From an uncultured Bdellovibrionales bacterium (GTDB lineage: Bacteria; Patescibacteriota; Minisyncoccia; Moranbacterales; UBA1568): DNA of 64,000 nt. Each line of letters begins with the position of its first letter. Positions within the stretch are counted from its first letter, which is position 1. This document shows, piece after piece, positions 18,343 to 64,000 of the stretch. The position numbers and the translations under genes are program-made. The notes beneath the pieces were generated by a model. The model was not told the DNA's origin. It searched no databases and saw only the letters and a program-made list of their open reading frames with translations. The stretch lies in NCBI GenBank assembly GCA_964384235.1, contig CAYLJX010000001.1:305709-369708 (forward strand). Reading direction: 5' to 3'.

Positions 18343-18371
18343 ACGTGTTCCCGTATCTGATTATTTCTTTA

Positions 18372-19820: not shown

Positions 19821-19856
19821 GAGTTTCTGATATCCTAAAAGATCACGAGCTATACT

Positions 19857-20564: not shown

Positions 20565-20566
20565 AT

Positions 20567-21565: not shown

Positions 21566-21792
21566 GAAATTTCTTTTGATCTATGAAGGACCTCTTCGAT
21601 AGAACGTACGGATTTCATGGAGGGGATATCAGCACTGTCGATAGCCACGCCGAGCTCCTGCTCAAGACAGAATACGATCTCTATCATCTGCAGCGAATCC
21701 CAATACCGTTCATGATCCTTATCGAGCTCCAAGACCTCCTCTTTTGATTTCTTTAGCACGCTGGCCAATATTTCAACGATTTTTTCAGTCAT
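21562..21792 (-). CDS. Acyl carrier protein (PP-binding)
   Basis: 76 aa, acidic. DSLQMIEIV contains the phosphopantetheine-attachment Ser. Overlaps neighbours by 4 nt. Confidence 0.8.
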   Translation of the reverse strand: MTEKIVEILASVLKKSKEEVLELDKDHERYWDSLQMIEIVFCLEQELGVAIDSADIPSMKSVRSIEEVLHRSKEIS

Positions 21793-21806
21793 AACGATTT
21801 CTTAAT

Positions 21807-23444: not shown

Positions 23445-23815
23445 AGAAGATTCAATGCGTCCCTGGAAACGATCACGCAAGCCACTGCGCTCATCTCATC
23501 ATGAGAAAGGCTAATTTTTGAAACGATACCTTCTTCTTTTACATATCGGACCTGGGGACAACCCCGTTCGTCGTGGTAAATCTCGATTTCATCCAGAGAA
23601 ACCTTCTCCGTGTCGCTCCCGATGCCTGATAATGCCTTTATAAAAGCTTCTTTGGCACAAAACCGGGCCGCGAAGTGCTGCTCCGGATACGACATCGAAT
23701 CACAGTAACGCCGCTCGCTTTCGGTGAAAATCTTTTCATAAAAAGAATAGGGCTTGTTCCTGAAACGGGAAATTTGCTCGATATCCACACCGATTGAAAT
23801 ACTTTCGAGACTCAT
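23441..23815 (-). CDS. acpS: Holo-[acyl-carrier-protein] synthase (4-phosphopantetheinyl transferase)
   Basis: GVDIEQISRF, FTESERRYC and FAARFCAKEAFIKA motifs. My hand translation shows a 1-nt frame inconsistency near 23759, but the ORF track gives an intact ORF. Confidence 0.8.
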   Translation of the reverse strand: MSLESISIGVDIEQISRFRNKPYSFYEKIFTESERRYCDSMSYPEQHFAARFCAKEAFIKALSGIGSDTEKVSLDEIEIYHDERGCPQVRYVKEEGIVSKISLSHDEMSAVACVIVSRDALNLL

Positions 23816-42166: not shown

Positions 42167-43066
42167 TTAAGATCCAGGCGCGGAAGAAGGACGGTTCTCA
42201 GCGACGTGCCTGGCCCTCATCTTCTTCCACTGGGGTATGATATTCCGAACGACGATGCGGACGACGATAAGCAGGGAAACGATCGCGACCGAACCGATAT
42301 ACAAAGCCCGCATCCACCATTCGCCGGAATCCGTTCCTGAAAAGAAACCGTGCAGGACGAAAAGCGGGTAGGCGACAAAGCTTCCGTAGTGGATCGCACG
42401 CCACACCCTGATAGGCATCTTGGAGCGGATTTCTGACGTGAAGATGAGAATGAGGACAAGATAGAACGCGATGATACCGAGACCGACGGATCCGGTCAGA
42501 TCGTATCCCATTGCCGCCCGAAACGGCCGCTCCAATACGAAGGGGACAAGCGCTTCCACAAGGCGCAACCGGAAGAAACCATCAAAGAAAAAACTTCCCA
42601 GGTGAAGCAGAATGGTACCGAGCGCCAAAAACGAAAGAAAGCGATGGACTTCCAAGGCAAGCGCTCCGGAAACATAACGAAGGAAAGCGCGGGAACTGAT
42701 GATAAGGCCGTGCACGACAATGAACGTCAGGAGAACAAAGGAGAGAATCCCGGTCGCCCGACCGAAATACCAGACTGTTTTTTGCGGTTCACCGAGGATC
42801 CCGGGATCCGGCCGCTGTAATTCCAAGAGACGGGAGCTTTCAGGATCCAAAGGGTTGGTGCTCTCACGGATCTCCTCTCCATCGCCGATACCATCGCCAT
42901 CCGTATCAAAAAGCGTCGGGTCGGTCCCATAAATCCGAACCTCGCTCTCGTCAGTCAAGCCATCCACGTCGTTATCCTTGACAGCCGCATGGACAGACGG
43001 CGAAAAAACCGCCAACAGAACGGTTCCCCAGGCAAGTATTATCGATACAAGGATACGGTTTCTCAT
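42167..43066 (-). CDS. Secreted/membrane protein with N-terminal thrombospondin-type-3-like Ca-binding repeats and a C-terminal ferric-reductase-like (MsrQ/YedZ-like) heme-b membrane domain
   Basis: Signal peptide. DNDVDGLTDESE and DTDGDGIGDGEE are DxDxDG repeats. The C-terminal half has 5-6 TM helices with conserved His pairs (VHGLI, LLHLG, IHYG, LHGFF) resembling PF01794. Confidence 0.65.
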   Translation of the reverse strand: MRNRILVSIILAWGTVLLAVFSPSVHAAVKDNDVDGLTDESEVRIYGTDPTLFDTDGDGIGDGEEIRESTNPLDPESSRLLELQRPDPGILGEPQKTVWYFGRATGILSFVLLTFIVVHGLIISSRAFLRYVSGALALEVHRFLSFLALGTILLHLGSFFFDGFFRLRLVEALVPFVLERPFRAAMGYDLTGSVGLGIIAFYLVLILIFTSEIRSKMPIRVWRAIHYGSFVAYPLFVLHGFFSGTDSGEWWMRALYIGSVAIVSLLIVVRIVVRNIIPQWKKMRARHVAENRPSSAPGS

Positions 43067-52442: not shown

Positions 52443-54656
52443 TCACGGAGCCGTCCCGTTCGCGCACGGACCGAATCCGGACAAGACCCGGACACCGTTG
52501 ACATTGACACAGCTAGGAGCAAAGGCAGCCTCGACCGCTGAGAGAGAGTAATAGACATTGCCTTGGATGGTCCACGGGAAAGACGGCGTGGAAGACGATG
52601 AGGAACTACCGGAACCGGAAGAAGATCCGGAGGAGGTTCCTCCCGAAGTCACCATATTGAACCGCACCGGGGAAGATTGAGCGTAGTCGGTTCCTTGTCC
52701 TGCGACACCACCATCGTTGGCGAGACTGCAACCGCCGGAATTGCATTTCCTGACGATGGCAACAACTTCGTAAAGACCAGGGGTAGTTAAGTTTCCTGAA
52801 CCGGTCGGCCACTGGTAGGACCCGCTGCTGTTGCCTGATGAAATCGGATTTGTCTGAGAGCTGCCTCCGGCAAGACCGCTCGCGCCACCGGAAGCAGTGA
52901 CCAGCGAGACCTGTAGAATCACCTGGGTAACGGAAGGGGCTCCCGTCACGTTCCAACTGATCGGGATCGGAGAACCGATATTGTATGAACCGTTCTGGGT
53001 GGGAGACGTGAGCGTGATAGTCGTGTTACTCGGAACGGAAGATGGCCCCCCACTGCTCCCGCTCGTACTCCCTCCCGATCCGGTGCAGCTCCCAGCGAAG
53101 TTCAGTCCGAAGAGCTGTACGCTGTTCGTTCCTTGCGGAGTATAGTTCGCCGTGCCGGTGGCCGCCTGGACGTTGCAGGTATACCCCTGATTATTAGCGA
53201 GGGTCTGAGAACGGTTCGCCAGGACACTGAACGACGAAGCGGTCATATTTCCGATCGGTGCCGTCACCTGTGGAGTGACGTCGCTACCACGGCCCACGGA
53301 ACTGAACCGACAGGTGATCGCAAGCGTCATGTTCCCGTTCCCGTCGAAGGCGACCGTGGTGTGGAGCGGTACGCCGTCATTGCTCGTCCGATCGTTCGCC
53401 CAACTCTTCCCATAAAGGAACTGCGAAGAACCCGGAGTGGCGCACACTCCCCCGCCTGTGCTTCCCCCGCCGCTCACGCCGTCAGAACAATTGAAGCCGC
53501 TGGTGCAGTTAGCCGTACCGGAACCGCTGCCACCGGTATCCCCCGAAGCGGTGACGCTCCCGATACTGGACCACGACGTGGTGCCCGAGGTCGTGACCGC
53601 CCTCAACCGATAAGAGTATGTGGTGCTGCCCTGGACGGAAGAGTCGATATAGCTCGTCCCGGTAGTGGTCCCTAAAGCGGTAAAGAAAGAACACGCTATC
53701 CCCTCGCAACGTTGGATCTCATAGGAAGAGGCTCCCGAGACGGGTGTCCAGGAGAGGGAGACGTCACCGCCCGTGGTCGCAAGGGTAGGCTTCTGCGGAG
53801 CCGAGGAGGAAGAAGCGGTTGCGAGAGTAGTCGTACCGGACCAGGCGGAGACACCCTCCGAAGTGACGGTCCGCACCCGATAGGTATAGTTCTGGCCGGC
53901 GGAGAGGTCGGTGTCGGTGTAACTCGCCTGGGTGGTGGTCCCAAGGGAGGAAAAGGCCGTACAGCTCGTACCGGCACAACGCTCGATCTCATAGCCTGAG
54001 GCGCCTGCAACCGGGGTCCAGGAGAGGGAGGTCTGGGAGGGAGAGGCATTGGTGGAAGAGAGAGCGGTGGGAGCGGGAAGATCAGGACGGACCACTGGTT
54101 GGCCGCTGCGGTCATCGGTCACGGAGAGAGGTTCGGTGCCATCTGCTCCGGGAGCGGCTGCGATGAAGCCAGGATCGACGGTGCCGGCAGTGCCAGTACC
54201 GGCCTGGGAGACGATGCTGCAGCTGAAGCTGAAGCCATTGCCTGTGAGAGTCAGACCAGGGATGTTGGCTCCGAGGATTCGGATGGCGGTGTTCACCAGG
54301 AGCCAGGCACCAAGCATGAGAGCGAAGCCGATGAGGGCGGCCTTGATACCGCCTTTGGCGGTAGACATCATGGAGTCGTTGCCGGAGGAGACAATGTAGT
54401 AGATAGCCATGGCCACGATGACGGCGATGGCGAGGATGGTCATGAGACGGAGGCCGTAGTCGATGACACCCTTGCCTCCGAGGACGAGGTGGCAGAGGGT
54501 ACAGGGAGCGGTTTCGTTGATAGTGGGAGTGGACTGGTCATCGACTTGTCTCCCGCAGGGGACGAGGGCGGCCTCCACAGAGTGAAGAGGAAGAAAAGAG
54601 AAAAAGAAGGAAAGCAAGAAGAAAGAAAGGAAAAGGGAGCGGGAGAGGCGGGACAT
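52443..54656 (-). CDS. Large secreted/surface protein with a VirB2/TrbC-pilin-like two-helix membrane region, two tandem fibronectin type III domains, and Ser/Thr/Gly-rich C-terminal domains
   Basis: 737 aa. Signal peptide, CxxxC pairs, then two hydrophobic helices (ILAIAVIVAMAIYYI and AALIGFALMLGAWLL). Two Fn3 repeats (SLSWTPVAGASGYEIERC..., SLSWTPVSGASSYEIQRC...) are followed by low-complexity T/S/G-rich beta-rich regions. Confidence 0.8.
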   Translation of the reverse strand: MSRLSRSLFLSFFLLSFFFSFLPLHSVEAALVPCGRQVDDQSTPTINETAPCTLCHLVLGGKGVIDYGLRLMTILAIAVIVAMAIYYIVSSGNDSMMSTAKGGIKAALIGFALMLGAWLLVNTAIRILGANIPGLTLTGNGFSFSCSIVSQAGTGTAGTVDPGFIAAAPGADGTEPLSVTDDRSGQPVVRPDLPAPTALSSTNASPSQTSLSWTPVAGASGYEIERCAGTSCTAFSSLGTTTQASYTDTDLSAGQNYTYRVRTVTSEGVSAWSGTTTLATASSSSAPQKPTLATTGGDVSLSWTPVSGASSYEIQRCEGIACSFFTALGTTTGTSYIDSSVQGSTTYSYRLRAVTTSGTTSWSSIGSVTASGDTGGSGSGTANCTSGFNCSDGVSGGGSTGGGVCATPGSSQFLYGKSWANDRTSNDGVPLHTTVAFDGNGNMTLAITCRFSSVGRGSDVTPQVTAPIGNMTASSFSVLANRSQTLANNQGYTCNVQAATGTANYTPQGTNSVQLFGLNFAGSCTGSGGSTSGSSGGPSSVPSNTTITLTSPTQNGSYNIGSPIPISWNVTGAPSVTQVILQVSLVTASGGASGLAGGSSQTNPISSGNSSGSYQWPTGSGNLTTPGLYEVVAIVRKCNSGGCSLANDGGVAGQGTDYAQSSPVRFNMVTSGGTSSGSSSGSGSSSSSSTPSFPWTIQGNVYYSLSAVEAAFAPSCVNVNGVRVLSGFGPCANGTAP

Positions 54657-54707: not shown

Positions 54708-54866
54708 TACCAAGCGTAGCGAGCGGAGCGCAGGTAAAATCGGGTCGATACCCGCGGCTTGCTTGCCCGCCTCCGGAGGGCCGCGTGGGGATCGGGAGCG
54801 GGGACTGCCCCGTGGTGCACCCCGAGTCCCGTCGGTGCGGCAGGAGGGGTAGCGTCGCCTCTACCT
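54708..54866 (-). pseudogene. Start-less relic of the C-terminal DTTPPAAPTGL tag-family gene (tag present, terminal stop lost)
   Basis: Minus-strand frame encodes ...GDATPPAAPTGLGVHHGAVPAPDPHAALRRRASKPRVSTRFYLRSARYAW*, with no start codon and an in-frame stop just upstream. Sits immediately upstream of the Fn3 gene. Confidence 0.35.
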
Positions 54867-54894: not shown

Positions 54895-56025
54895 TCACGC
54901 CAGGAACTGCCGGTAGTTCGAATTGTTGACCACCCTGTATTCCGCTCCGTACGTATTGACAAACTCCGAGGGGACGCGGGCGTTCTTCTTCGGATTCCAT
55001 TTGAACTCAAACCCCCGTATACGACCGCCTTCTTCTTCCACATAATCTATCTCCTTCTGTCCATACGTCCTCCAAAAATAAGCATTGACTCCGTACGAAC
55101 GATGTGCATTAAACTTCTGCCGTTCGGCGATACAGTAGTTCTCCCACAGCGCGCCGACATCATCGCGCAGCGCCAACCTCCGATAGTTCTGCACCAGACC
55201 GTTCCTGATGCCCGTGTCATAAAAGTAGATCTTCACCGATTTCTTCACCTCGTTCCGCAGGTTTCGCGCGAAGGCGCGTACGGTAAAGATGACGAAACTC
55301 TGCTCAAGCACGTCGAGGTATTTCCGGACCGTCTGACGGCTCACCTGGAGCTCTTTCGCCAGTTCATTGTATGAGACCTCCTGCCCCAACTGCAAGGCAA
55401 TCAACTTCAAAAGGTCACGGACTAATCCGGATTTTTTCAGGTCATCGAAGCGAAGCGTATCCTTGTACAGGTATGCCGATGCCAACGCGTTCAACCGTTC
55501 CTCCGCCTGTCCTTCAGGCAATCCGAACACTTCCGGATAACTTCCGAAACGCAGTATCGCCTCGATGTCCTCATCCGATGTCAGGAGGTGTCCGGACGCG
55601 GTGATTTCTTCGAACGACAGCGGATAGAGCGTGAAATGAAAGGCACGTCCCGTGAGCGGTTCGGCCGTCTTGTCGGCCAGCTCGAAACTCGATGACCCGG
55701 TCGCGATAATCTGCAAATCAGGAAACGTATCGATAAGGAGCTTCAGCTTCAATCCGATATCCGGAATATACTGCGCTTCATCCAACACGACGACCTTGTG
55801 ATTCCCCAAAAACGCGTGCAACTTCCGAGAGTCAGCCACTGCTAACCCGTCCTGAGCCGAGACTTCCTCACAGTTGAAATATCCGGACGACGAATCAAAA
55901 TCCGCAAGGATTTTCTTCACCAGCGTGGTTTTCCCTACTTGTCTAGCACCGTATAAAACGATGATTTTCCCTTTAAAAAGCCTTTCTTTCAGAGATTTTT
56001 CTATGCTACGCTGAATGAGTTTCAT
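54895..56025 (-). CDS. AAA+ ATPase (AAA_14 / DUF4143 family)
   Basis: 376 aa with Walker A GARQVGKTT and Walker B VVVLDEAQ, plus a C-terminal DUF4143-like region. Its upstream region contains the palindrome ACTACAAATGTAGT. Confidence 0.85.
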   Translation of the reverse strand: MKLIQRSIEKSLKERLFKGKIIVLYGARQVGKTTLVKKILADFDSSSGYFNCEEVSAQDGLAVADSRKLHAFLGNHKVVVLDEAQYIPDIGLKLKLLIDTFPDLQIIATGSSSFELADKTAEPLTGRAFHFTLYPLSFEEITASGHLLTSDEDIEAILRFGSYPEVFGLPEGQAEERLNALASAYLYKDTLRFDDLKKSGLVRDLLKLIALQLGQEVSYNELAKELQVSRQTVRKYLDVLEQSFVIFTVRAFARNLRNEVKKSVKIYFYDTGIRNGLVQNYRRLALRDDVGALWENYCIAERQKFNAHRSYGVNAYFWRTYGQKEIDYVEEEGGRIRGFEFKWNPKKNARVPSEFVNTYGAEYRVVNNSNYRQFLA

Positions 56026-56125: not shown

Positions 56126-57598
56126 TCACTGCGCCCCCAACCCCGTCGGCACGGCAGGAGGAGTGGTGTCGGCTGCTCCGCGCTCGTAGCCGCGCGTTCC
56201 GAGATAGGTCGTCCGATACGATCCCTGCAGATTGCCATTGCTATCCAGGATCCCGGTCGCGGGCGCACCGCTCAACACGTTGGCGACGGTCGGCACCTGA
56301 CCGCCGCTGTAATTGATACGATTGGGTGATCCGGAGGAGTTCACGACGATATCCGCGTTGAAGCTCGCCGGACCGGTATCGAAGTTTGACAATTCGACGG
56401 TGCCAACATAGGTGTTGCGGTAAGACTCGAATGCCCCCCATCCCCCGGTCTCCTGACCGATCCAGAGCGCCATGCTGCCACGTGCCAGATTGTATGATAC
56501 TTCGACATTGTTGACCGTCGGGTAGGTATCGATCCAGATCGCCTGACCGTTCGGGATATTGAAACGGTTGTCCCGTATGTACCAGTAAGAGAAGTTCATC
56601 TTCGGTCCCACACCCTTGGAATCGCTCGCCGTGATATTCGTAAACGTGTTCCGTTCGACCAGAACCTTGTCGGCCCAATACCCGAGGATGCCGTAGGCCG
56701 TGCCGCCGATGAAATCGGAGAACGTATTGCCCACGAACGCGATATGATTCGACTTGCTCCCGCCATTGGCGATCATTACTCCGGACGCGTTCGTGCCGAC
56801 CCCTCCCGCGCCGACCGGCATGTCATCGAAGGTGTTGCGATAGAACATCATGTCGTTTCCGCCGCTGTCGATATGGACGCCGAAGTCGGTATTCATATTG
56901 CGGATCGTCAGTCCTTCCATGTACCAATTCGAAATCGCCGGGTACGCCGAGATATGCGATCCGGTGACGTTGATGACGGGTGACTCGCCTGGATACGCGA
57001 GCCACACCGTCGGCTTGTGCGACGGCATTGCCAGCCGCCACCCGTCCTCGACCGGCGCGGCGTTGGTATTGTATGTCCCGTTGCGATAGTAGACGAACTG
57101 GCCGTTGTATGTCGTGTCCGCCTTCGCGATATACCAGTCGTCAATCGAATTGAACGGCGATGCGGCAGAACCGGTACCGCCGCCCGGCGCCGAAGCATCG
57201 ACGAAGATGAAGCCGCTCGTCGTGACAGTGATCGCCCATGTCACGCTGGCCGTACCACCCGCCGCATCCGTCGCCCGAACCGTCACGGTATGCGGACTGC
57301 CAGTCGTGGTCGGATTCGGCCAAGACAATACGCCGGTTGACGCATCGATGGACATGCCGGACGGCCCACTAATCAGACTGTAGGTATTGGGAAAAGTGCC
57401 GCCGATTACCGCGATCGGCACTTCGTACCGTAAACCCGGATAGGCCTTGTAATAACGGTTGCCGATATCCAACCCAGCACGTGGTGCGATGATCTCAATC
57501 GGTTGAATCGCCGCTTGGGCGTTTTCAGGAAAGAGAGAAATGAGGACCACGAATCCGACAAAGACATCCCGGAAAATACGCGCCGTTTTTTCGGACAT
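56126..57598 (-). CDS. Secreted right-handed parallel beta-helix (pectate-lyase-fold) protein with an N-terminal cadherin-like/He_PIG Ig domain, ending in the DTTPPAVPTGLGAQ tag
   Basis: 490 aa. Signal peptide, then an Ig-like SGPSGMSIDASTGVLSW domain, then repeated N/G-x-x-F/I beta-helix rungs (MFYRNTF, AFVGNTF, VERNTFTN, IRDNRFN). TGA stop directly follows the tag. Confidence 0.85.
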   Translation of the reverse strand: MSEKTARIFRDVFVGFVVLISLFPENAQAAIQPIEIIAPRAGLDIGNRYYKAYPGLRYEVPIAVIGGTFPNTYSLISGPSGMSIDASTGVLSWPNPTTTGSPHTVTVRATDAAGGTASVTWAITVTTSGFIFVDASAPGGGTGSAASPFNSIDDWYIAKADTTYNGQFVYYRNGTYNTNAAPVEDGWRLAMPSHKPTVWLAYPGESPVINVTGSHISAYPAISNWYMEGLTIRNMNTDFGVHIDSGGNDMMFYRNTFDDMPVGAGGVGTNASGVMIANGGSKSNHIAFVGNTFSDFIGGTAYGILGYWADKVLVERNTFTNITASDSKGVGPKMNFSYWYIRDNRFNIPNGQAIWIDTYPTVNNVEVSYNLARGSMALWIGQETGGWGAFESYRNTYVGTVELSNFDTGPASFNADIVVNSSGSPNRINYSGGQVPTVANVLSGAPATGILDSNGNLQGSYRTTYLGTRGYERGAADTTPPAVPTGLGAQ

Positions 57599-57672
57599 AG
57601 TTTCTTACATTCGAAAAAAAAGAAAGAGGCACCCCCATCCTTTCTTCTCATTATACCATGTCTAAAAATATT
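57599..57672 (-). promoter_or_regulatory. Promoter/leader module with extended -10 (TGGTATAATG), homologous to the module at 63231-63300
   Basis: Minus strand reads catGGTATAATGagaagaaaggatgggggtgcctctttcttttttttcgaatgtaagaaactATG, with an AAGAAAG...CTTTCTT hairpin and a U-run in the leader. Confidence 0.5.
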
Positions 57673-58944
57673 TCATTGTGCCACAAGCCCCGTCGGCGCG
57701 GCGGGAGGAGTGGTGTCGCCGACCATGTACTCATCCGCACCGGCATCGATACCGCCGCCTTGGGGACGTACCTGCCCATCGAAGTCATCCGTCAGTCCGC
57801 TGATACTTGTTCCGGCATTATTGGCCGACGTCGATCCGGACACCAAATGAAGATTTCCTGAAGAAACATCGGTAAACCAGTTGGCCGCGGCCGAGGTGAG
57901 ATTATTCGAGAGAGTCCCGGTCGCGCCGTCGCGGGCCGCGATGGATCGGTTAGTGAGGTTGTTTCTGATCGTGACGCCGGAAGTCGCCGAGAAGCGGTAC
58001 TCGATGGCATTAGGGTAGCCGTTCTCGAGATAGACGGTGTTATTGTACACCTGAGTGTTAGGACTGGTTTCCAGGCCGATCGGGACATCGGCGAAGGAGC
58101 CGTTCCCGGAGGCGTGGTAGATCATGTTGTTGCGGATGATGCCGCCGCTCGCCCCGCGAGTGCCGAGACCGAACCCGATGCCGCGGTCGCAGTTGATGAT
58201 GACATTCCTCTCCACCAGGTTGTTGCTCGCCGGCGAGTCCCAGATATGCACCGCGTGCTCGGCAATCGCCGTATCGGGGCTGATGATATTACGGAAGGTG
58301 TTCCCTCGGACGATCCAGTCACTCCCGCCGTGGATATCGATGCCGCCGATGTAGTACTGCGGACCGATGCCGGCCGTATACTCGAAGAGACTGTTCTCGA
58401 TCAATCCGCCGTCACCGGTGACATTGGGACTCCCCGTACTCTGGCTGACCTTGAGGATCTGCTCGTAGGCGTTCCGCAGGACACAGTTACTCACCACCGT
58501 GAAATCCGCATCGTCCTCCCCCACCACCTGGATCACGTGCCAGCCGACGCGCTGGAGCGTGACGTTGCGGACGGTGAAGTAGTCCGCATCCACCCGGAAG
58601 ATCTCCTTGACCGAGGCCGAGGCGCTCATCGCATCGCCCTGGATAATAACCGCGTCACGGTTGCCGGACTGGCTCTCGACCGTGATGTGCGGCGCCGAGA
58701 TCGGGAGCAGATCAGAGAGCGTGTACGTCCCGTTCGCAAGCGCGATCGTGACATTGCCGCCGGACGCGTTGGCGCTGTTGATAGCGTTCACGAGTTCCGT
58801 CACGTTGCTCACCGTCACCGCCGCCGAGGCGGAACGGGGAAGCAGCGAAAAGATACCCGGCAGGAGAACGACCAGCGACACACCGAGCAGGAATATTCCA
58901 GTGAAAGACCTTATCCCCATATCATGAGACTCGTACATCCACAC
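57673..58944 (-). CDS. Secreted right-handed beta-helix (pectin-lyase-fold) protein ending in the DTTPPAAPTGLVAQ tag
   Basis: The track start is GTG. In-frame ATGs at 58938 and 58920 (MGIRSFTGIFLLGV..., a signal peptide) are more likely. Beta-helix rungs RGNTFRN, VERNVIIN, IRNNMIY and VYNNTVY. Only a 9-nt gap separates it from the upstream gene. Confidence 0.85.
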   Translation of the reverse strand: MWMYESHDMGIRSFTGIFLLGVSLVVLLPGIFSLLPRSASAAVTVSNVTELVNAINSANASGGNVTIALANGTYTLSDLLPISAPHITVESQSGNRDAVIIQGDAMSASASVKEIFRVDADYFTVRNVTLQRVGWHVIQVVGEDDADFTVVSNCVLRNAYEQILKVSQSTGSPNVTGDGGLIENSLFEYTAGIGPQYYIGGIDIHGGSDWIVRGNTFRNIISPDTAIAEHAVHIWDSPASNNLVERNVIINCDRGIGFGLGTRGASGGIIRNNMIYHASGNGSFADVPIGLETSPNTQVYNNTVYLENGYPNAIEYRFSATSGVTIRNNLTNRSIAARDGATGTLSNNLTSAAANWFTDVSSGNLHLVSGSTSANNAGTSISGLTDDFDGQVRPQGGGIDAGADEYMVGDTTPPAAPTGLVAQ

Positions 58945-58953
58945 AAAGGCTTG

Positions 58954-60303
58954 TCATTGTACCGTCAGACCGGTCGGCGCGGCAGGCGGGGTGGTGTCGC
59001 CGCCTCCGCTTGAGAGACCAGACACACTGTAAATATGCATCGTCGGAGTATGCGCCTGTCCGGAATTGTTCCGTCCACGATAAACATACAGTTTGCCGGT
59101 GCTCGAAGTCGGGGTATCCCGGAGAAACTGGACGCCATGAACATGCCAATCACCGGAACACGAAGACGGCCAATTGCCCCATGTGGCGACACTGAACGCT
59201 GTATATGGCGTGACATCCCAGGGATTCACCGTTCCGTTTTTTGCCGCTGCGAGATCATCCACATCAAACAGCATAAAGATGTATTTGGTAGGAGCAGCAG
59301 AATGCCCGGCTGAAGGAAGTGAACAACCTGCATCCATATTGCCAGATGAACACCCCTCCTTGTAACAAACCTGCCCCGTTCCCGATGACATAGCGAACAG
59401 TACGGTGTCCGATCCATCGATAAATGTCACCCCACCGACTTTTGTTGTGCCGTTAGCAAGCGCCTGCCCACCAGCCCCGTTCTGTGAATTCCATGTACAG
59501 CGACTACCAGAGCCCGTGCAGGCTGGAAATTCTGCGTTGCCCGCCCATGGCATGTGACGCGCCTCATTATCGCCATCATAGCGCATGAGCCACGTGGGCG
59601 CTGCACTGCTCCCTGGAGTCATAACCGCCAGCGCCGGGCCAAACGAGGTACGACTGATAACCGAAGAGAAACCATTGCCCATGACATGTGTCCCTCCAAG
59701 AAGAGCCTGATGTTCGCTCGGGATCCTGGTAATCCAGCCGTTTAGATAATCCTGGAATGATGCCGAATTACCAATTGTATTGGGACCAGTCTGGCCAGAT
59801 GCATTTGACAGTGTCGGCGAATGTGTGAACTGGGGATGAGTGACACCAGACGAGTAATACGACATGACATTGACATACAGCTTGCTATTGTACACGATGT
59901 GTCCATCAATAAAACATCCATTGCCACATACACCACTTGGCAACAGGTTATAGTGGTCACCACCGAGGGTGTCATAGTTCCATCCCTGGAGGAGCGTTGG
60001 GGTAGAGCCCACGGTTGGGACAGCAATTTCCGCCATGCAAGCTGTGTTGCGAGAACCAGTGAGATAGAATGATCCCGCGCCACCATTGCCAGCTGGATTA
60101 TATGATAGACCAGGCGTGTAGTCATTTTCAGAAGGCGCACCCCCGCAATTACCCGTAGGAGCTGGGAGTGTACTCGATCCGAGATAGGTGATGTTGGCCT
60201 GCTGAACGCGCACCCCGGCCTGCACATCCGTTCCCATGAAAAAGAACAAAACGACGACCAGCGTGACCAACGAACCGAGAGAGGATGGAAAAAGATGTTT
60301 CAT
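58954..60303 (-). CDS. Secreted protein of unknown fold (Gly/Ser/Thr/Cys-rich) ending in the DTTPPAAPTGLTVQ tag
   Basis: 449 aa with a signal peptide and many Cys residues. A 20-nt AT-rich gap separates it from the LamG gene. Confidence 0.8.
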   Translation of the reverse strand: MKHLFPSSLGSLVTLVVVLFFFMGTDVQAGVRVQQANITYLGSSTLPAPTGNCGGAPSENDYTPGLSYNPAGNGGAGSFYLTGSRNTACMAEIAVPTVGSTPTLLQGWNYDTLGGDHYNLLPSGVCGNGCFIDGHIVYNSKLYVNVMSYYSSGVTHPQFTHSPTLSNASGQTGPNTIGNSASFQDYLNGWITRIPSEHQALLGGTHVMGNGFSSVISRTSFGPALAVMTPGSSAAPTWLMRYDGDNEARHMPWAGNAEFPACTGSGSRCTWNSQNGAGGQALANGTTKVGGVTFIDGSDTVLFAMSSGTGQVCYKEGCSSGNMDAGCSLPSAGHSAAPTKYIFMLFDVDDLAAAKNGTVNPWDVTPYTAFSVATWGNWPSSCSGDWHVHGVQFLRDTPTSSTGKLYVYRGRNNSGQAHTPTMHIYSVSGLSSGGGDTTPPAAPTGLTVQ

Positions 60304-60323
60304 ATCGATATATATATTATATA

Positions 60324-63230
60324 CTACCTCCCCATATTATACAGCTGGGTCACTTCGGACGGAGACAGGCCGCGGTTGTAGAGGCGGACGTCGTCGATCT
60401 GGCCCGCAGCATTCACGTAGCCGTCGTATCCGATGGAAAGATCGTTGGTTTCGCTGTCCGCCGTCCCGGTGGGCGCGGAAAGTTCCGTCACCGTTTGAGA
60501 GATTCCGTTCACGTACACCACCGGGTCGTTCGTGGTCGAAGTCCGATCGTAGGTCACGACGACGTGCGCCCACTGATCCGCCAGTACGGAGTCGGCTCCC
60601 AATCGCCATTTTCCATCGGTTCCGGAAAAGGCGTGGTAGTACACGAGATGCCCGGCCGTTCCGTTGCAATCCGTCGCATCGTTCGAGCATATTTGAAAAG
60701 CCCAGGTAGTACGGCCCATGACGGCGCGATACTGCGTCAACCCCGACGGCTTGATCCAGGCGGAAATGGTTTTTGCATCGAGATTATCGAATACCGGATC
60801 AGTGAAGAGATCCACTCTGGCACTACTCCCGTCGAAACTAAGGGCTTGGCCGATGCGACCGGGAGTGGCGGAGGCGGCGGACATGCCGATCGCATCGCCG
60901 TGATTGGCGTTGCCGGAAGTGTCTTTCACCTCGGTCGTGGTGTCGTTCCAAGCGACGCTCGGCCCGTCGAAGCTCCACTGCCCGACGAGACCGTTCGTCA
61001 GGACGCCGTTCTGGGAAGACTGGAGCGTCGTCTTGCCGCCAGACGCTTGGTAGATATCGGTCACCTGCGCCTGAGTGAGCGCCGTGTCGTAGATGCGAAC
61101 ATCGTCGAGCTTGCCGTCGAAAGGAATGGTAGTGCCGGCATACCCGATGCCGATGGCCAATGCATCGCCGTTGGATAGGTCTCCCGCTATCGAACAATCG
61201 TTACTCCCGATGTTCGTCCCGTCGAGGTACAGCGTCGCGACGTGGCTGCTATCGACCGATAGCACATAGTGATGCCATACGCCGGTGATATCGCCGACAT
61301 TGACGTACCAGCCGCAGTCGTCCGACGCGTCGTTCAAGAACGCGGTTAGCAGATTGCCATCGAACAACAGTCCATACCCTTGGGAAAGGTCGTTTGAGGC
61401 TTTGAAGAGAAGCGCATCCATGGTGCCGTTCGTATCCCGATAGAACCAGCCCGCGAGGCTGAAGGCTTGGCCGGAACCGAAATCCAACGCGCCGCTTGTC
61501 GGATCGGCCACGGCGACGTAATCGTCGGCGTCGTCGAAATTGAGGGATTGTCCGAGGCGTCCAGGGGCGACCGTCGGGCCGTTGGTGAGCGTCCCATTGT
61601 TCGTTGCACGACTACGATCGAGAGCGGCCGCCCCCCGCACATCCGTTCCGTCAAACGTCCAATACCCGACGAGATTGGTATTAGGGTCGTCAGGATGAGT
61701 CTCTTGATACAGTCGCCGAGCCTCGTCGGGAGAGAGGGCGCGATGATACGTCCGCACCTCGTCGATCTTGCCGTCGAAAGGATTGCCCGCATCCGATTCG
61801 GCCGCGATACGGAAATCCACCGCGTTGCCCAGATTCCCGATACTCGCCGTGGAGCTCGCGGTACTGTTGTCGAGACGGCCGTCGATGTAGAGATCTATTC
61901 CCTTGGCGTCATGCCAGACTGCCACGAAATGGTGCCAGCCGGTGGCAGTAAACGTACTCGCCGAAGCAAGCGTGTACTGATCGCTCGCCGTCCCGCCGCC
62001 GTCACCGACGGTAAAGTTGAGCTTGTCATTGGTCGCGTCGATCCACACGATATATCCGGCATCCGTATTGGTAGCGGAACTGTTACGTTTGGCGACGATG
62101 GTATCCTCGGTCGTGGCGGTATCGCGGTTGAACCAGCCCGTCACCGTCACATCAGCGCCGTCAGGAACATCCAGGACACCGCTCGCCGGATCGGCGACAC
62201 CGGCATACTGGGTCGATCCGTCGAAATCGATCCCTCCGCCTATCTGACCGGTCGTCCACGTAGGACTGGCTGTCAGGGAAAGGGTATTGCCGTTCCCGCT
62301 CGCGTCCGTCGCGCTGCTTCCCGAACCGTCGTCGAGCTTCCAGTAGCCGGAGAGGCCTTCTTCGAGGACGTCATCCCCCGGACGGAGATTGGCCGTCACC
62401 TTGCCGAGATCGTAGAGACTCGCCACTTCTGTCGCCGAAAGAGCACGATTATAGAGACGAATTTCGTCCAGGGTGCCGCTGAAGTTCTCGTTGTTCATGG
62501 TACCGATCTGCTGCTCGCCCGCTGTCCCAGTGATATTGTCGAAGAAAAAGTCCGTCGACGCGCTCCCGGTCGTATACGTAAGCGTCTGCAGGACGCCGTC
62601 GATGTAGAGCTTGTGACCGGAGGTATCGTCGGTGAACACGACGTGATGCCAATCGGTCGGGTTCGGGAGCGTCACGCTGGCATCAACCGTCGCCGTACAA
62701 CTGGATCCGGACGCTGTCATCCAGAGATAGATCGTGCTGTTCTGCATGTCCATAGCGAGCTGGAACTGGCCGCGATTACTGGTGCAATTATCGTACCCCC
62801 AGAGCGTCCCTGAGGTCGGCGTCTCCCCAACCGTCCCGCTGTACTTGATCCACATGGCAATCGTCCCGGTCGTGTAACTGTCGAAAACGCTCGGGGCGAT
62901 ACCTACCGTACCTGCCGTTGTCGGAAAACGAAACCCCTGACCTAATCGACCCGGAACTTCCGTCGGCGCATCGCCGCCGATCTGAAGATTGATGTGACGA
63001 GCGTTCCCGGACACGTCCTTTACTTCGCTCGTCGTATCCGCCCAAACGATAGCTCCACCGTCCAAAGTCCAGTACCCCTGCAGACCGTTGGTAAGACTCC
63101 CCGTCTGCGGACTCTGAAATTTGGTCGAAGCCTGAGACTTTTGATAGTACCACCAGCCCCCTACCGCCAGGATGATGAGGGTCGTGATGATGAAGACGTA
63201 TTGGATGACCCGCGCTTTGGTTTCGGACAT
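60324..63230 (-). CDS. Membrane-anchored giant surface protein with four tandem LamG / concanavalin-A-like lectin domains
   Basis: 968 aa with an N-terminal TM helix. Four repeats each end with LDE/DDVRxYNRALS..EV..LY. W-x-H/WHH motifs are typical of LamG. Confidence 0.85.
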   Translation of the reverse strand: MSETKARVIQYVFIITTLIILAVGGWWYYQKSQASTKFQSPQTGSLTNGLQGYWTLDGGAIVWADTTSEVKDVSGNARHINLQIGGDAPTEVPGRLGQGFRFPTTAGTVGIAPSVFDSYTTGTIAMWIKYSGTVGETPTSGTLWGYDNCTSNRGQFQLAMDMQNSTIYLWMTASGSSCTATVDASVTLPNPTDWHHVVFTDDTSGHKLYIDGVLQTLTYTTGSASTDFFFDNITGTAGEQQIGTMNNENFSGTLDEIRLYNRALSATEVASLYDLGKVTANLRPGDDVLEEGLSGYWKLDDGSGSSATDASGNGNTLSLTASPTWTTGQIGGGIDFDGSTQYAGVADPASGVLDVPDGADVTVTGWFNRDTATTEDTIVAKRNSSATNTDAGYIVWIDATNDKLNFTVGDGGGTASDQYTLASASTFTATGWHHFVAVWHDAKGIDLYIDGRLDNSTASSTASIGNLGNAVDFRIAAESDAGNPFDGKIDEVRTYHRALSPDEARRLYQETHPDDPNTNLVGYWTFDGTDVRGAAALDRSRATNNGTLTNGPTVAPGRLGQSLNFDDADDYVAVADPTSGALDFGSGQAFSLAGWFYRDTNGTMDALLFKASNDLSQGYGLLFDGNLLTAFLNDASDDCGWYVNVGDITGVWHHYVLSVDSSHVATLYLDGTNIGSNDCSIAGDLSNGDALAIGIGYAGTTIPFDGKLDDVRIYDTALTQAQVTDIYQASGGKTTLQSSQNGVLTNGLVGQWSFDGPSVAWNDTTTEVKDTSGNANHGDAIGMSAASATPGRIGQALSFDGSSARVDLFTDPVFDNLDAKTISAWIKPSGLTQYRAVMGRTTWAFQICSNDATDCNGTAGHLVYYHAFSGTDGKWRLGADSVLADQWAHVVVTYDRTSTTNDPVVYVNGISQTVTELSAPTGTADSETNDLSIGYDGYVNAAGQIDDVRLYNRGLSPSEVTQLYNMGR

Positions 63231-63300
63231 AATTTCGTTTTGTATTCAGCAAGAAAAGAAAGAGGTCTATCTCCCCATTCTTTTTTACCATTATACCACG
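63231..63300 (-). promoter_or_regulatory. Promoter/leader module with extended -10 (TGGTATAATGG) for the LamG operon
   Basis: Minus strand reads cgTGGTATAATGGtaaaaaagaatggggagatagacctctttcttttcttgctgaatacaaaacgaaattATG. Confidence 0.5.
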
Positions 63301-63315
63301 TTCGGCAGCATCTCA

Positions 63316-64000
63316 CTGCACCACGAGTCCCGTCGGTGCAACGGGAGGAGCAGCATCACTCACCGACGTAGTATCAGAGACGACAATATCATCGATATAA
63401 TAAGCACTCGAAAAATTATCGGTTGACGAGAGAAGTTTGAAAGCTGTATCCATTGGAAATCCGTTTTGGTCATAGTATCGACCGAAGTAAACCTCCGAAG
63501 CCTATCGATCCAACCTGTTTCATATCGCAGGTCGAAACCTTTCACGACACTGACACCGTTTAACGAGGACATATTCCCCCCTCTCTCGAATCACTCGTCA
63601 CATCTATACCGACAGGCAGAATCGCAAATATACATCCGTTGCTTCCAGGACCACAACTACTTAAATAGAAATTAACATACCCTGATGAAGGAGGAACGCA
63701 ATGCGTACTATCGAGGATGACGAGTCCGCTCGTTCCACTCGTGCATACGGCAGTTGCCCCTCCTCCCGGTACCGAGGAGAGCGATATTCTTGTTCTTCCT
63801 GCACTCCCGCTCCCTTCAAACCACCTGGTTTGCACATTGCCGGTACCGATAGAAGTATAGGGGACAGAGACGATGCCTCCTGGGACTCCATAAACGTATA
63901 CCTTTGCCCCGACGTCATGGTATTGACCCGGACTAGTGGGGTAATCGAACACGTTAGTGGAATTCAAGCGACTCCCAATCCGACAATTATTGATTCCAGG
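63316..64000 (-). pseudogene. Frame-disrupted member of the C-terminal tag family (ends ...DTTSVSDAAPPVAPTGLVVQ-TGA); alternatively a gene with sequencing frameshifts
   Basis: Three consecutive minus-strand frames carry protein-like sequence (63560..63967, 63360..63572, 63318..63503). Only the last carries the conserved tag, and it has no start codon. It continues beyond the window. Confidence 0.35.

Follow-up and report, generated by a model that had tools for sequence, protein, structure and literature searches.

The dockerin of the cellulosome is a folded, calcium-binding domain of roughly 60–70 residues. Other secreted proteins carry C-terminal sorting signals, among which processing of the T9SS C-terminal domain (CTD) pairs with PorU, while YSIRK signal peptides pair with LPXTG. 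Exopolysaccharide loci can encode depolymerases, examples being WceF (Pantoea stewartii), RbmB (Vibrio cholerae) and VexL. The PilC/PilY1 beta-propeller adhesins are anchored through their last ~10–12 residues, a beta-strand that complements the minor pilin PilK (Ellison et al., bioRxiv 2026, PMC12918778). In Xanthomonas, the C-terminal Fn3 domain of CbsA is required for SecB binding and export, and is missing from the secreted enzyme (PMC9190976).

Here we describe a 64,000-nucleotide stretch of DNA (the window) in which adjacent secreted proteins end in the same 14 residues. The shared ending forms a separate C-terminal module and is widely conserved. It is made up of the proline-rich final part of a linker between domains and the A-strand of an Fn3-type domain, with the stop codon following 1–3 residues later. 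A flexible, variable linker joins it to Sec-exported enzymes whose folds are unrelated, and purifying selection maintains both the stub peptide and the point at which translation ends. The stub is covered by no NCBIfam or Pfam model and appears to be undescribed so far.

Results

Tagged genes and their neighbours

A six-frame motif search of the window, together with its ORF list, placed all tag copies on the minus strand. Three intact genes (g1, g2 and g3) and a frameshifted fourth (g4) share the ending D-T/A-T/A-P-P-x-x-P-T-G-L-x-x-Q-stop; in g1–g3 the 14 residues lie exactly where an earlier note on this DNA had placed them, and the copies that it reported in a disrupted gene and in a relic were also recovered by the six-frame search. 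The features are as follows.

52443..54656, minus strand: membrane protein of 737 aa, weakly T4SS-pilin-like at the N-terminus, with two complete Fn3 domains and additional beta-rich regions (Pfam)
54815-54856, minus strand: relic tag GDATPPAAPTGLGVHH... (DATPPAAPTGLGVHH), non-coding (six-frame motif search)
54895..56025, minus strand: AAA_14/DUF4143 ATPase gene, with the g1 tag on one side and the relic tag on the other (Pfam, geometry)
56126..57598, minus strand: g1, secreted protein of 490 aa with a He_PIG Ig domain and a Pel9A-like beta-helix (ORF, translation, Pfam He_PIG)
56129-56170, minus strand: g1 tag ...GAADTTPPAVPTGLGAQ (stub DTTPPAVPTGLGAQ), stop at 56126-56128 (six-frame search, ORF list)
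57540..57717, minus strand: g2-to-g1 junction, comprising tag, TGA, TGGTATAATG box (57649-57658), 5' leader and codons 1 to ~20 of g1 (MSEKTARIF...) (alignment)
57673..58944, minus strand: g2, secreted protein of 423 aa (GTG start), a right-handed beta-helix of polysaccharide-lyase-like fold (ORF, AF2, Foldseek)
57676-57717, minus strand: g2 tag ...GDTTPPAAPTGLVAQ (stub DTTPPAAPTGLVAQ), then stop (six-frame search, ORF list)
58954..60303, minus strand: g3, secreted beta-propeller protein of 449 aa (ORF, AF2, Foldseek)
58957-58998, minus strand: g3 tag ...GGDTTPPAAPTGLTVQ (stub DTTPPAAPTGLTVQ), then stop (six-frame search, ORF list)
60324..63230, minus strand: membrane-anchored protein of 968 aa with four Laminin_G_3 domains, without the stub (Pfam)
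63170..63357, minus strand: g4-to-LamG junction, comprising tag, TGA, TGGTATAATG box (63289-63298), 5' leader and codons 1 to ~20 of the LamG gene (MSETKARVI...) (alignment)
63313..64000, minus strand: g4, a fourth tagged gene, present as a frameshifted remnant (three-frame translation; BLAST to metagenomic tagged proteins)
63316-63357, minus strand: g4 tag ...DAAPPVAPTGLVVQ, stop at 63313-63315 (six-frame search, three-frame translation)

Both g1 and g2 are beta-helices resembling polysaccharide lyases; g3 is a beta-propeller of sialidase/glycosidase-like type. Database gene calls start g2 at 58920 or 58938, giving 415 aa (P0001) or 421 aa (P0405). Its AF2 model (pLDDT 86, with the tail 415-423 below 50) matched PL6/PL9 lyases in Foldseek, RbmB and VexL also being among the fold matches, and the protein scored 25.2 bits against NCBIfam choice_anch_Q. 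Homologs of g1 carry PF22842/PF13229 domains, with the stub mostly at the end. A Pfam search found no family for g3; its AF2 model (pTM 0.77, with the tail 434-449 below 50 pLDDT) matched propeller glycosidases, sialidases and one phage receptor-binding protein. The N-terminal domains had been called unrelated: profiles indeed do not relate g1 and g2, but both are beta-helices, and g3 is a propeller. That the peptide is independent of the N-terminal domain family is supported by profile comparison of g3 with g2, in which the tag alone aligns. The final segments of the g4 pseudogene are spread over three frames, and its end (...AYYIDDIVV...) resembles by BLAST a metagenomic tagged family ending W.DD.VV, LamG-like by inspection. 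TGA is the stop in 4/4 tagged window genes, and is also the commonest stop overall (15/24 long ORFs of the window).

Among the neighbours, the four-Laminin_G_3 protein is only a candidate scaffold for the tagged enzymes; related LamG proteins adjoin tagged genes in loci L005, L084, L009 and L011 (BLAST, Pfam). The relic tag, with no stop 3' and no ORF 5', lies ~35 nt past the stop of the DUF4143 ATPase gene. Several assemblies break just beyond that gene, which is probably an insertion or cassette replacement between two tag copies and outside the tagged system. The 737-aa membrane protein (Pfam fn3, E=3.8e-13) may be regarded, speculatively, as a partner of the stub; the label 'VirB2-like' once attached to it is not supported, its match to Pfam T4SS_pilin being sub-threshold (22.3 bits against a cut-off of 26.6). 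Nor do we retain the view of the cluster as a surface-appendage apparatus, given that g1 and g2 are lyase-like and g3 glycosidase-like, and that in Proteobacteria the homologs of these genes are located within ordinary Wzy-type exopolysaccharide gene clusters.

The g2-to-g1 and g4-to-LamG junctions align at ~74% identity, and the TGGTATAATG box, which is -10-like, has exact copies within the window only in these two. Because they share ~190 nt, part of the tag similarity belongs to a duplicated junction module and not to the peptide alone. Hence the claim that the copies are not simply a recent DNA duplication stands in so far as they are not nucleotide-identical, but it overlooked the duplicated junctions. 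In metagenomic arrays, junction modules are ~90% identical (by inspection) between unrelated gene bodies, and the tag is accompanied by unusually conserved signal peptides.

Conservation of the stub

Homologs of the g1, g2 and g3 families mostly end in [P/L]-x-[P/A]-P-[T/S]-[N/G]-[L/V]-x-[V/I]-x(1-3)-COOH. Such endings were found in Proteobacteria, Acidobacteriota, CPR bacteria and one phage; the motif is thus widespread and not confined to this genome. Single-membrane CPR-like and double-membrane lineages alike possess the stub. It forms the C-terminal end in 111/120 best g2 homologs, in at least 68/120 g1 homologs and in 10/13 g3 homologs. A looser motif regex applied to end-trimmed ORFs as a control matched only 3–11/2599, which, set against the g2 figure, excludes a chance origin. 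Positions outside the tail selection are conserved as P 70% (-3), P/A 84% (-1), T/S 64% (+1) and N/G 79% (+2). Tag carriers fall into at least seven unrelated BLAST clusters, often in tandem arrays, with beta-helix lyase-like, beta-propeller, polysaccharide-lyase-like and S8 protease folds.

Orthologs from several phyla share only 55–60% identity and have a hypervariable linker next to the stub, yet the stub residues and the exact place of the stop are kept in them; linkers before the stub are variable and S/T/G-rich. Across the first 11 tag codons of g1–g3, codon differences are synonymous in 13 cases and non-synonymous in 2, in agreement with the earlier inference of purifying selection at the protein level, and 12 proteobacterial g2/g3 tag pairs use different codons at 39/69 identical residues. 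Amino-acid decay is seen in the pseudogene and relic copies of the window and in phage copies. The g2 and g3 tags are more alike within one genome than across genomes (0/20000 permutations reach the observed score), and position +3 (L or V) matches between them in 12/12 genomes. This likeness could derive partly from older gene conversion; the junction modules have clearly been copied as DNA.

At the same C-terminal position, homologs of stub-bearing families may carry Dockerin_1, Por_Secre_tail (T9SS sorting), PG_binding_1, or Fn3 with further domains, and some have hydrophobic tails that are PEP-CTERM-like by inspection. Many members of the g3 family have no tail at all. One close homolog, from a phage, has no signal peptide yet retains a degenerate stub; the stub is therefore not strictly tied to export.

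Origin from an Fn3 domain

We scanned metagenomes for DNA encoding DTTPPAAPTG[LF] and found 139 occurrences in two classes, with almost nothing between them. In 93/139 the peptide opens a complete Fn3-type domain; in 37/139 a stop follows 3 codons (33 cases) or 4–6 codons past the Leu. The truncated class stops at TAA (14), TAG (13) or TGA (10), with ordinary intergenic DNA beyond. The earlier note had remarked on a resemblance to the first Fn3 strand, and this proves well founded: where the identical 11-mer is internal, the Pfam fn3 model begins inside it, and a Moraniibacteriota (CPR) genome encodes a single protein, g3-Fn3-Fn3-X-Fn3-g2, in which the window g3 stub aligns with the start of the first Fn3 and the orthologous sequence continues into the full domain. 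From the two classes, the three stop codons and the presence of the ending in at least seven unrelated families, we conclude that the stub is an Fn3 A-strand with its proline linker under purifying selection. To describe it as the remnant of a shuffled Fn3 module was thus correct as to origin but left its conservation unexplained. A mis-assembly concealing Fn3 had also been envisaged; none of the frames downstream encodes Fn3, and the same stop position, with TAA, TAG or TGA, recurs in independent assemblies and in hundreds of homologs.

Discussion

We tentatively favour, as quite possible, the reading of the stub as a tethered docking strand, or 'mini-dockerin'. After export, the free C-terminal strand would add to or complete a beta-sheet of a partner protein in the envelope, which might be a scaffold of Ig/Fn3-like or LamG-like type, a second tagged enzyme or a protein resembling a pilin. 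Several glycan-active enzymes would thereby be held together at the cell surface, the stub acting as a non-covalent substitute for the Fn3 spacers, dockerins, T9SS or cell-wall-binding domains of homologs, and the tandem genes of the window, with their duplicated tag-promoter-signal-peptide junctions, would form an array of cargo genes. This reading is suggested because the early-stop class of the scan marks a discrete module; because the ending is conserved in homologs of g1, g2 and g3 with mostly synonymous codon change, and independently of catalytic fold; and because homologs bear dockerin, T9SS or other anchors at the stub position, a 'choice of anchor' in keeping with the choice_anch_Q match of g2. 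Furthermore, the g3-Fn3-Fn3-X-Fn3-g2 fusion gives a Rosetta-stone link, co-variation of g2 and g3 tags within genomes points to shared recognition, and the PilC/PilY1 C-terminal strand offers a precedent. The S/T/G-rich linkers and the AF2 tails below 50 pLDDT beside confident domains suggest a flexible tether, although low model confidence is no proof that the g2 and g3 tails are free. The tag-less g3-family members and the phage stub without a signal peptide count against docking. Neighbour-family enrichment and metagenomic arrays revealed no acceptor protein or recognition enzyme near tagged genes: the only enriched families were ordinary exopolysaccharide genes (Wzy_C in 13/21 vs 1/62 loci, a contrast confounded by phylogeny), and the short arrays held no recurrent untagged partner.

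We consider it unlikely that the stub is instead a sorting or processing signal, at which a dedicated enzyme or secretion component would cleave the protein, ligate it to a surface polymer or route its export. It does sit where homologs carry known sorting signals, many unrelated secreted proteins per genome or array share it in a many-to-one pattern, and array tags are paired with conserved signal peptides much as YSIRK is with LPXTG. Yet it has neither a hydrophobic helix nor a basic tail, so that nothing would retain the protein in the membrane for a sortase-like enzyme embedded there; none of the residues is constant enough to serve as a chemical attachment point (T 52%, N 58%, the last residue varying); and no peptidase or transpeptidase candidate recurs near tagged genes in the loci and arrays examined. 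Its span across single- and double-membrane lineages, and the phage copy, also tell against such a signal.

It is similarly doubtful that the stub is an evolutionary leftover with little or no function, produced when Fn3-joined enzymes were split or truncated at the Fn3 start and the junction cassette was then shuffled. An 'A-strand, stop, promoter/RBS, signal peptide' junction would have been copied between genes by recombination, with Fn3 starts and junction modules supplying the DNA homology, and the conserved peptide would be a by-product. In favour of this, the orthologous fused protein contains a real Fn3 whose start is homologous to the stub, the same 11-mer opens real Fn3 domains elsewhere, junctions are duplicated as DNA in the window and in metagenomic arrays, and the ATPase gene lies between two tag copies, one a relic. 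A neutral remnant would, however, drift in sequence and length, whereas diverged orthologs keep residues and stop position beside a hypervariable linker, tags differ mainly at synonymous sites, and decay is limited to pseudogene, relic and phage copies.

A cis-acting tail that aids the biogenesis or stability of its own protein, for instance by binding an export chaperone, pausing translation at a PP motif before termination or shielding against a tail-specific protease, seems very unlikely. CbsA is a parallel, and the stub has PP, PxxP and a polar final residue, but a generic part in stability or pausing would explain neither the N/G-L/V-x-V/I strand pattern, nor the within-genome co-variation between unrelated proteins, nor replacement by dockerins and other anchors; the AF2 models, moreover, predict no cis contact.

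Finally, an artefact of mis-assembly, a frameshift hiding Fn3, TGA recoding or read-through has a negligible chance of being correct, for although 4/4 window copies stop at TGA and the g3 stop and g2 start lie in one frame 9 nt apart, the independent assembly P0001 (100% identity over 98% of g2) ends identically, as do hundreds of homologs from unrelated samples, TAA, TAG and TGA are all used, the DNA beyond is intergenic, carrying several stops ahead of a new signal peptide, and code 11 leaves the long ORFs of the window intact. We reject mis-assembly, recoding and recent duplication alike as sources of the stub.

Comparison with known systems

LPXTG/sortase, PEP-CTERM/exosortase, GlyGly-CTERM/rhombosortase and T9SS CTD signals, like the stub, occupy the extreme C-terminus of many unrelated secreted proteins, and the stub is interchangeable with them among homologs. 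As the earlier note had argued, it does not resemble these: it lacks the transmembrane helix and basic cluster of the first three and falls far short of a T9SS CTD in length; no curated model matches it, and we found no cognate enzyme to process it. From WceF, RbmB and VexL, g1 and g2 differ in having no detectable sequence relationship to them, but they too are beta-helices of lyase/tailspike-like fold, and g2 homologs lie inside Wzy-type EPS clusters. The Fn3 spacers of bacterial carbohydrate-active enzymes contain an identical linker end and A-strand (PxxPxN/G-L-x-V), of which the stub represents ~10 of ~90 residues; six other strands are therefore missing and no domain forms in cis.

Whereas a dockerin is a domain with a cohesin, the stub has 10–14 residues, no fold of its own and no cohesin-like acceptor that was found; both are common C-terminal modules of many unrelated, often clustered, secreted glycan-degrading enzymes, and some g3-family members bear a real Dockerin_1 exactly at the stub position. 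With PilC/PilY1 there are differences in that the neighbourhoods of the tagged genes here contain no genes for pilins or minor pilins, and that the stub is Fn3-derived, is borne by many enzymes per genome instead of one adhesin, and takes part in an interaction that is putative. What the two share is a short, strand-like extreme C-terminus on a large beta-propeller, a donor strand in PilC/PilY1 and, in g3, the stub.

The shared C-terminal peptide and its carriers

A six-frame search of the window found D-[TA]-[TA]-P-P-x-x-P-T-G-L-x-x-Q followed immediately by TGA at the end of three intact genes for secreted proteins (g1, g2 and g3) and of a frameshifted fourth gene (g4), and located a fifth, non-coding copy (the relic, 54815-54856), which is neither preceded by an ORF nor followed by a stop. 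The shared terminal peptide and TGA that the earlier note had seen on adjacent secreted proteins are thereby confirmed; TGA is also the usual stop of the window, closing 15 of 24 long ORFs. The tagged array and its neighbours run along the minus strand in the following order:

ends 63313, minus strand: g4, the frameshifted gene, first of the tagged array
60324-63230, minus strand: LamG protein, 968 aa, four Laminin_G_3 domains (Pfam)
58954-60303, minus strand: g3 (ORF)
57673-58944, minus strand: g2 (ORF)
56126-57598, minus strand: g1 (ORF)
54895-56025, minus strand: AAA_14/DUF4143 ATPase gene (Pfam)
52443-54656, minus strand: 737-aa membrane protein, two Fn3 domains (Pfam)

Judged by profile comparison, g1, g2 and g3 are mutually unrelated apart from the tag: g1 matches g2 only weakly, over one beta-helix coil, and between g3 and g2 the tag alone aligns. 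The AlphaFold2 (AF2) model of g2 is a confident right-handed beta-helix (pLDDT 86), with fold matches to PL6/PL9 polysaccharide lyases, RbmB and VexL, while that of g3 is a beta-propeller (pTM 0.77) matching generic propellers, including sialidases, glycosidases and a phage receptor-binding protein; the tag has pLDDT <50 in both. Pfam recognises a He_PIG Ig domain in g1, the homologs of which match Pel9A-like beta-helix models, and a sequence search of the PDB returned no relatives of g1 or g2. Residues 367-406 of g2 match the NCBIfam choice-of-anchor Q model (NF041518; 25.2 bits against a cut-off of 25), which describes the C-terminal end of a beta-helix (...D.DG..R......DIGA.E), and the tail of a metagenomic tagged beta-helix scores 32.8 bits with the same model. 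Docking of the tag in cis onto its own enzyme receives no support from AF2, the tails being modelled with low confidence.

An Fn3 fragment with a fixed end

The tag corresponds to the start of the fn3 family model (PF00041), P-x-x-P-x-N/G-L-x-V, comprising the end of a linker and strand A. A complete Fn3 domain is a seven-stranded beta-sandwich of ~85-90 residues; g1-g3 contain none, their stop falling 3 residues past the strand-A Leu, and they give no fn3 match.

Metagenomes and three viral contigs were scanned for DNA encoding DTTPPAAPTG[LF], with 139 occurrences. An internal class (n=93) starts a complete Fn3-type beta-sandwich (...TATAGDGSVSLDWNDN...GYNVYR...; pattern ...SLDW...GYxVYR...), and in one such case, L129, the Pfam fn3 model (profile positions 2-82) begins inside the identical 11-mer DTTPPAAPTGL. 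A terminal class (n=37) has its stop exactly 3 codons past the Leu in 33 cases and 4-6 codons past it in four, and only five further occurrences carry 7-23 residues past the Leu. All three stop codons are used in the terminal class (TAA 14, TAG 13, TGA 10), and the DNA beyond them is AT-rich and intergenic, leading to a new signal peptide, with no Fn3 coding sequence downstream of the tags in any frame; recoding, read-through and assembly error are therefore ruled out. Mis-assembly is further ruled out by one independent assembly and by hundreds of homologs that end identically.

A natural counterpart of the tagged pair occurs in L005, a locus of a Moraniibacteriota MAG (JBPOHW010000001.1, 7289-11545), where orthologs of g3 and g2 are joined in one 1418-aa protein laid out as g3-Fn3-Fn3-unknown domain (X)-Fn3-g2-Cys-rich tail, with three Pfam fn3 domains. 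The g3 stub of the window (...HIYSVSGLSSGGG, then DTTPPAAPTGLTVQ and the stop) aligns with the start of the first Fn3 domain of this fusion (...HVYQVSGASTP, then DTSPPTSPTTLAATSPNQSSISVSW...), and is therefore the end of a linker plus strand A of Fn3, and nothing more. Preceding the fusion is a protein with one Pfam Laminin_G_3 domain, the C-terminal part of which matches the window LamG protein, so that the L005 locus is syntenic with the window. A CPR/Patescibacteria origin of the window is suggested only by L005, the closest syntenic locus, and by the weak T4SS_pilin-type membrane protein. Within the window itself, the TGA of g3 and the GTG start of g2 (58944-58956, minus strand) stand 9 nt apart in one reading frame, such that read-through would yield a g3-g2 fusion; this spacing echoes the L005 arrangement, though it is probably a coincidence.

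Distribution and consensus

Stub-type endings are found in 111 of the 120 best g2 homologs (of 1835 with E<=1e-5), in which a conserved ...DIGADEY is followed by a variable linker and then by P-x-P-P-T-N-L-R-V-x-x-stop or a close variant, as well as in at least 68 of 120 g1 homologs and 10 of 13 g3 homologs. A scan of one genome per species produced 327 relatives of g2, from Acidobacteriota, Gamma- and Betaproteobacteria, Desulfobacterota, Bacteroidota, Verrucomicrobiota, Thermotogota, two phyla of Patescibacteria-type (CPR) bacteria and others. The proteobacterial g2 and g3 homologs, both stub-ended, adjoin one another within Wzy-type exopolysaccharide (EPS) clusters that encode glycosyltransferases, Wzy_C, asparagine synthase and a flippase.

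From 189 tails the consensus is [P 70%/L 20%]-x-[P 62%/A 22%]-P-[T 52%/S 12%]-[N 58%/G 21%]-[L 68%/V 26%]-x-[V/I/A]-x(1-3)-COOH, the final residue usually being Q, N, E, P or K. A general role for Thr O-glycosylation is unlikely with T at only 52% and K, R, Q, A and S also occurring; so is an Asn-directed ligase or cleavage motif, N reaching 58% and being G in the window type; and a PDZ-type C-terminal ligand is unlikely given a variable, mostly polar last residue and 1-3 residues past the strand.

The carriers are diverse. The terminal DTTPPAAPTG[LF] class alone falls into at least seven unrelated BLAST clusters, and by their C-terminal endings the carriers include GAYEY-type beta-helices, ...YPHPL proteins and W.DD.VV proteins resembling LamG domains. 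Pfam families could be assigned only to a pectate-lyase/rhamnogalacturonase-like protein, a polysaccharide lyase and an S8 peptidase bearing cadherin domains; the remaining carriers mostly fall outside any Pfam family. Runs of two to four tagged genes per contig, each with a signal peptide, are frequent (L102, L108, L128, L157 and L178).

Mobile elements offered few relatives: none of g1 in a cultured-phage collection, none of the g2 homolog of locus L011 in a plasmid collection, and in IMG/VR none of g2 and only 5 distant relatives of g1, among which the stub expression picked out no tagged ORF. An Fn3-containing protein in the IMG/VR contig L094 (7048-7152) closes with two tandem stubs, DTTPPAAPTGLAATISG-DTTPPDAPTGLTATTQE-stop. 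A g1 homolog of 69% identity (P0144) lies between capsid and SU10-type adaptor genes of a podophage-like contig (L085, 10001-11389; logan:SRR10571213_163095); it lacks a signal peptide and ends in a degenerate stub, LPAPTNLGRTP-stop. This protein points to exchange of depolymerases between phage and a CPR-like host.

Selection and co-variation

Across the first 11 codons of the g1-g3 tags there are 13 synonymous changes against 2 non-synonymous, bearing out the earlier observation that the copies differ at synonymous positions; such mostly synonymous differences rule out recent DNA duplication as the sole cause of tag identity. Amino-acid changes are more numerous in the g4 pseudogene and relic tags than in the intact tags, and decay is also seen in three close phage-type g1 homologs, P0144 among them. 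Orthologs of only 55-60% identity, from different phyla, keep the tag residues and the position of the stop, while the linker before the stub is hypervariable in both length and sequence.

The tags of g2 and g3 are also more alike within genomes than across them (0 of 20000 permutations reached the observed score); at position +3, counted from the conserved P of the motif, the choice of L or V agrees between the two in 12 of 12 genomes. Different codons are used at 39 of the 69 identical residues of paired g2/g3 tags, which are thus not fresh DNA copies of each other. The tag is a separate C-terminal peptide that is under selection and independent of the fold of the secreted glycan-active enzymes that carry it; it is flexibly tethered and disordered in monomer models.

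Junction modules and possible cassette exchange

The junctions between g2 and g1 and between g4 and the LamG gene are alike over ~190 nt (~74% identity), a stretch that spans the tag, the stop, an exact TGGTATAATG box (57649-57658 and 63289-63298, the sole exact copies within the window) and the first ~20 codons of the next gene, which begins MSEKTARIF... in g1 and MSETKARVI... in the LamG protein. A junction composed of tag, promoter and signal peptide was therefore duplicated as DNA. The window junctions share the architecture of those in L178 and related contigs, where the tag, ~45 nt that include a ribosome-binding site, and a signal peptide of 29 codons are, by inspection, ~90% conserved between neighbouring genes with unrelated bodies.

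Near-identical junctions between unrelated gene bodies are seen in the tagged arrays of five metagenome contigs (L178, L104, L175, L180 and L201), in the order tag, TGA, TTGG..GAAACTAAGCACAATGTAGAAAGGAAATCTCAAAATG, and signal peptide MQNDNVKFKIILL...AKSSWA; these look like the product of concerted evolution or cassette exchange. The ATPase gene of the window stands between two tag copies in direct orientation (g1 tag 56129-56170, relic 54815-54856, minus strand), an arrangement suggestive of insertion into, or replacement of, a former tagged cassette. Six independent Logan contigs carry the ATPase gene, and five of them break off ~160 nt beyond it, close to the relic.

Recombination sites such as the attC of integrons and the sfx of shufflons are non-coding or inverted-repeat DNA with a cognate integrase or recombinase, and are conserved as DNA rather than as peptide. 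Unlike these, the copies of the tag lie in direct orientation and in frame, with most of their differences at synonymous positions, and no integrase or recombinase is present among the annotated genes of the window.

Genomic setting

A glycan-synthesis block occupies ~0-27 kb of the window and is followed by housekeeping genes. It encloses a low-GC island (10497-23480; GC 0.44-0.47 against ~0.55-0.58 elsewhere) encoding GT2 and GT4 glycosyltransferases, a DUF2142 membrane protein, a DegT aminotransferase, a methyltransferase and an acetyltransferase, which looks like a horizontally acquired cluster for surface-glycan synthesis. The island is flanked by further glycan genes:

2029-3336: UDP-glucose dehydrogenase
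26259-27686: Bac_transf

The suggestion in the earlier note that the tagged cluster is a surface-appendage or attachment apparatus is not supported, the tagged proteins being enzyme-like, the ATPase looking inserted and the pilin-like call falling below threshold.

Elsewhere in the window, residues ~147-233 of a SecD homolog (34231-35907, minus strand) form a PpiC-type peptidyl-prolyl isomerase (rotamase) domain that separates the first P1 segment from the P1 head, an unusual union of foldase and export component in one protein. In the protein at 42167-43066 (minus strand), bacterial TSP3 (thrombospondin type 3) repeats are joined to a ferric-reductase-like transmembrane domain; the related contig L086 likewise has a Ferric_reduct gene, close to its g3-g2 pair.

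Possible functions

We tentatively favour the view that the tag is a docking strand, which would add to the beta-sheet of a partner and so hold the tagged enzymes at the envelope or together. The existence of a natural g3-Fn3-g2 fusion is an argument for g3 and g2 acting physically close to each other, and the co-variation of their tags is one for a shared, co-evolving recognition surface; our confidence stays limited because no acceptor was found. Clustering of neighbours around 83 loci and 33 metagenomic loci gave, as potential partner or processing enzyme, only EPS biosynthesis genes (an enrichment confounded by phylogeny) and the tagged families themselves, and no untagged gene recurs in the short tagged arrays.

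Laminin_G_3 (ConA-like) proteins lie directly beside tagged genes in five loci: the window, L005 (Moraniibacteriota), the related contig L084, and two from Gammaproteobacteria, L009 and L011, the latter from the cultured Thiococcus pfennigii 8320, in which the LamG, g2 and g3 genes adjoin one another. Those not already placed are:

L084, 11563-13200: LamG protein beside tagged genes
L009, 4170-6263: LamG protein beside tagged genes
L011, 1835-4558: LamG protein beside tagged genes

In the window, four LamG domains stand beside four tagged genes, and the LamG protein is a possible scaffold for the tagged enzymes, although its adjacency in five loci is suggestive only.

A more speculative elaboration of the docking strand, and a doubtful one at present, is a split beta-sandwich or 'mini-dockerin' system, in which an Fn3 A-strand of 10-14 residues would be the cargo half, carried by secreted polysaccharide-degrading or -modifying enzymes, and would plug into the acceptor sheet of a surface scaffold or filament, building cellulosome-like multi-enzyme complexes in CPR bacteria, Proteobacteria and Acidobacteriota. 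The conserved tag-to-signal-peptide junctions would then let enzyme cassettes swap in and out of arrays.

A true sorting or processing signal would fit the pattern of many cargos and the conserved signal peptides, but we consider it unlikely, since the tag comes without a membrane-retention segment, an invariant reactive residue or a candidate enzyme. There is likewise only a small chance that the tag is an Fn3 remnant that has largely no function and was propagated through recombination at the conserved junctions; while this accounts for its origin and for the copying of junctions as DNA, it fails to explain why both the sequence and the stop position are so deeply conserved. A role in cis, in export or stability, has one loose precedent in the CbsA Fn3 domain, which is needed for SecB binding (PMC9190976), but explains neither the strand pattern nor the co-variation of tags, and is distinctly improbable. 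That the ending is an artefact is excluded for all practical purposes.

If the tag is indeed a docking strand, it would explain how CPR bacteria and exopolysaccharide-producing Proteobacteria retain secreted glycan-cutting enzymes at the cell, provide a natural, minimal counterpart of engineered split-domain tags, and supply a simple annotation rule for a large set of secreted enzymes currently called 'hypothetical'. Even as a mere conserved remnant, its two-class distribution (continuation into a full Fn3 domain or termination after exactly three codons) and the junction modules would represent an unusual mode of evolution in arrays of secreted-enzyme genes.

Comparison with known anchors and tags

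What follows the conserved domain in the g2 and g3 families is nothing, the stub, or one or more full Fn3 domains; other ends are a T9SS sorting domain (in Bacteroidota), Dockerin_1, PG_binding_1 and, in some members, hydrophobic tails that are PEP-CTERM-like by inspection. The tag occupies the place of docking and anchoring modules. The T9SS sorting domain (Por_Secre_tail, PF18962) is a C-terminal beta-sandwich of ~75 residues, and has no Pfam match in g1-g3 although it is present at the same position in Bacteroidota homologs of g2 and g3. Dockerin (PF00404), a duplicated Ca-binding loop-helix motif of ~60 residues, is similarly absent from g1-g3 but present in two g3-family proteins (P0285 and P0334).

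Tripartite C-terminal sorting signals (LPXTG, PEP-CTERM, GlyGly-CTERM and PGF-CTERM) consist of a motif, a hydrophobic transmembrane helix and a basic cluster, whereas the tag has just 1-3 mostly polar residues past its motif. Seven tails gave no match to NCBIfam, the home of curated CTERM models, even at E<=10; no NCBIfam or Pfam model covers the stub itself, and literature searches by motif strings and keywords found no description of it.

The tag shares with donor-strand tags (the C-beta of PilC/PilY1, the N-terminal extensions of pilus subunits) a short, terminal, strand-like pattern of alternating hydrophobic residues, with L/V at +3, V/I at +5, a variable linker before the motif and AF2 tails of pLDDT <50. 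A direct precedent for docking is offered by the beta-propeller adhesins PilC/PilY1, whose final 10-12 residues serve as their anchor through strand complementation of the minor pilin PilK (PMC12918778). The tag differs in having no linkage to minor-pilin genes of type IV filaments: Pfam identified no type IV pilus or T2SS genes among most long ORFs of the 64-kb window, and none were seen in the EPS loci.

Each of several short C-terminal signals, among them LPXTG, PEP-CTERM, GlyGly-CTERM and the T9SS domain, brought to light a complete system that puts proteins on the bacterial surface. The tag has their bioinformatic hallmarks, namely a precise terminal position, many unrelated cargos and interchange with known anchors, and differs from them in its lack of a membrane segment and its origin as a domain fragment. 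Both C-terminal tags and donor strands are established types of device; this tag belongs to no known family and appears to be uncatalogued, a truncated but precisely terminated domain fragment found across single- and double-membrane phyla.
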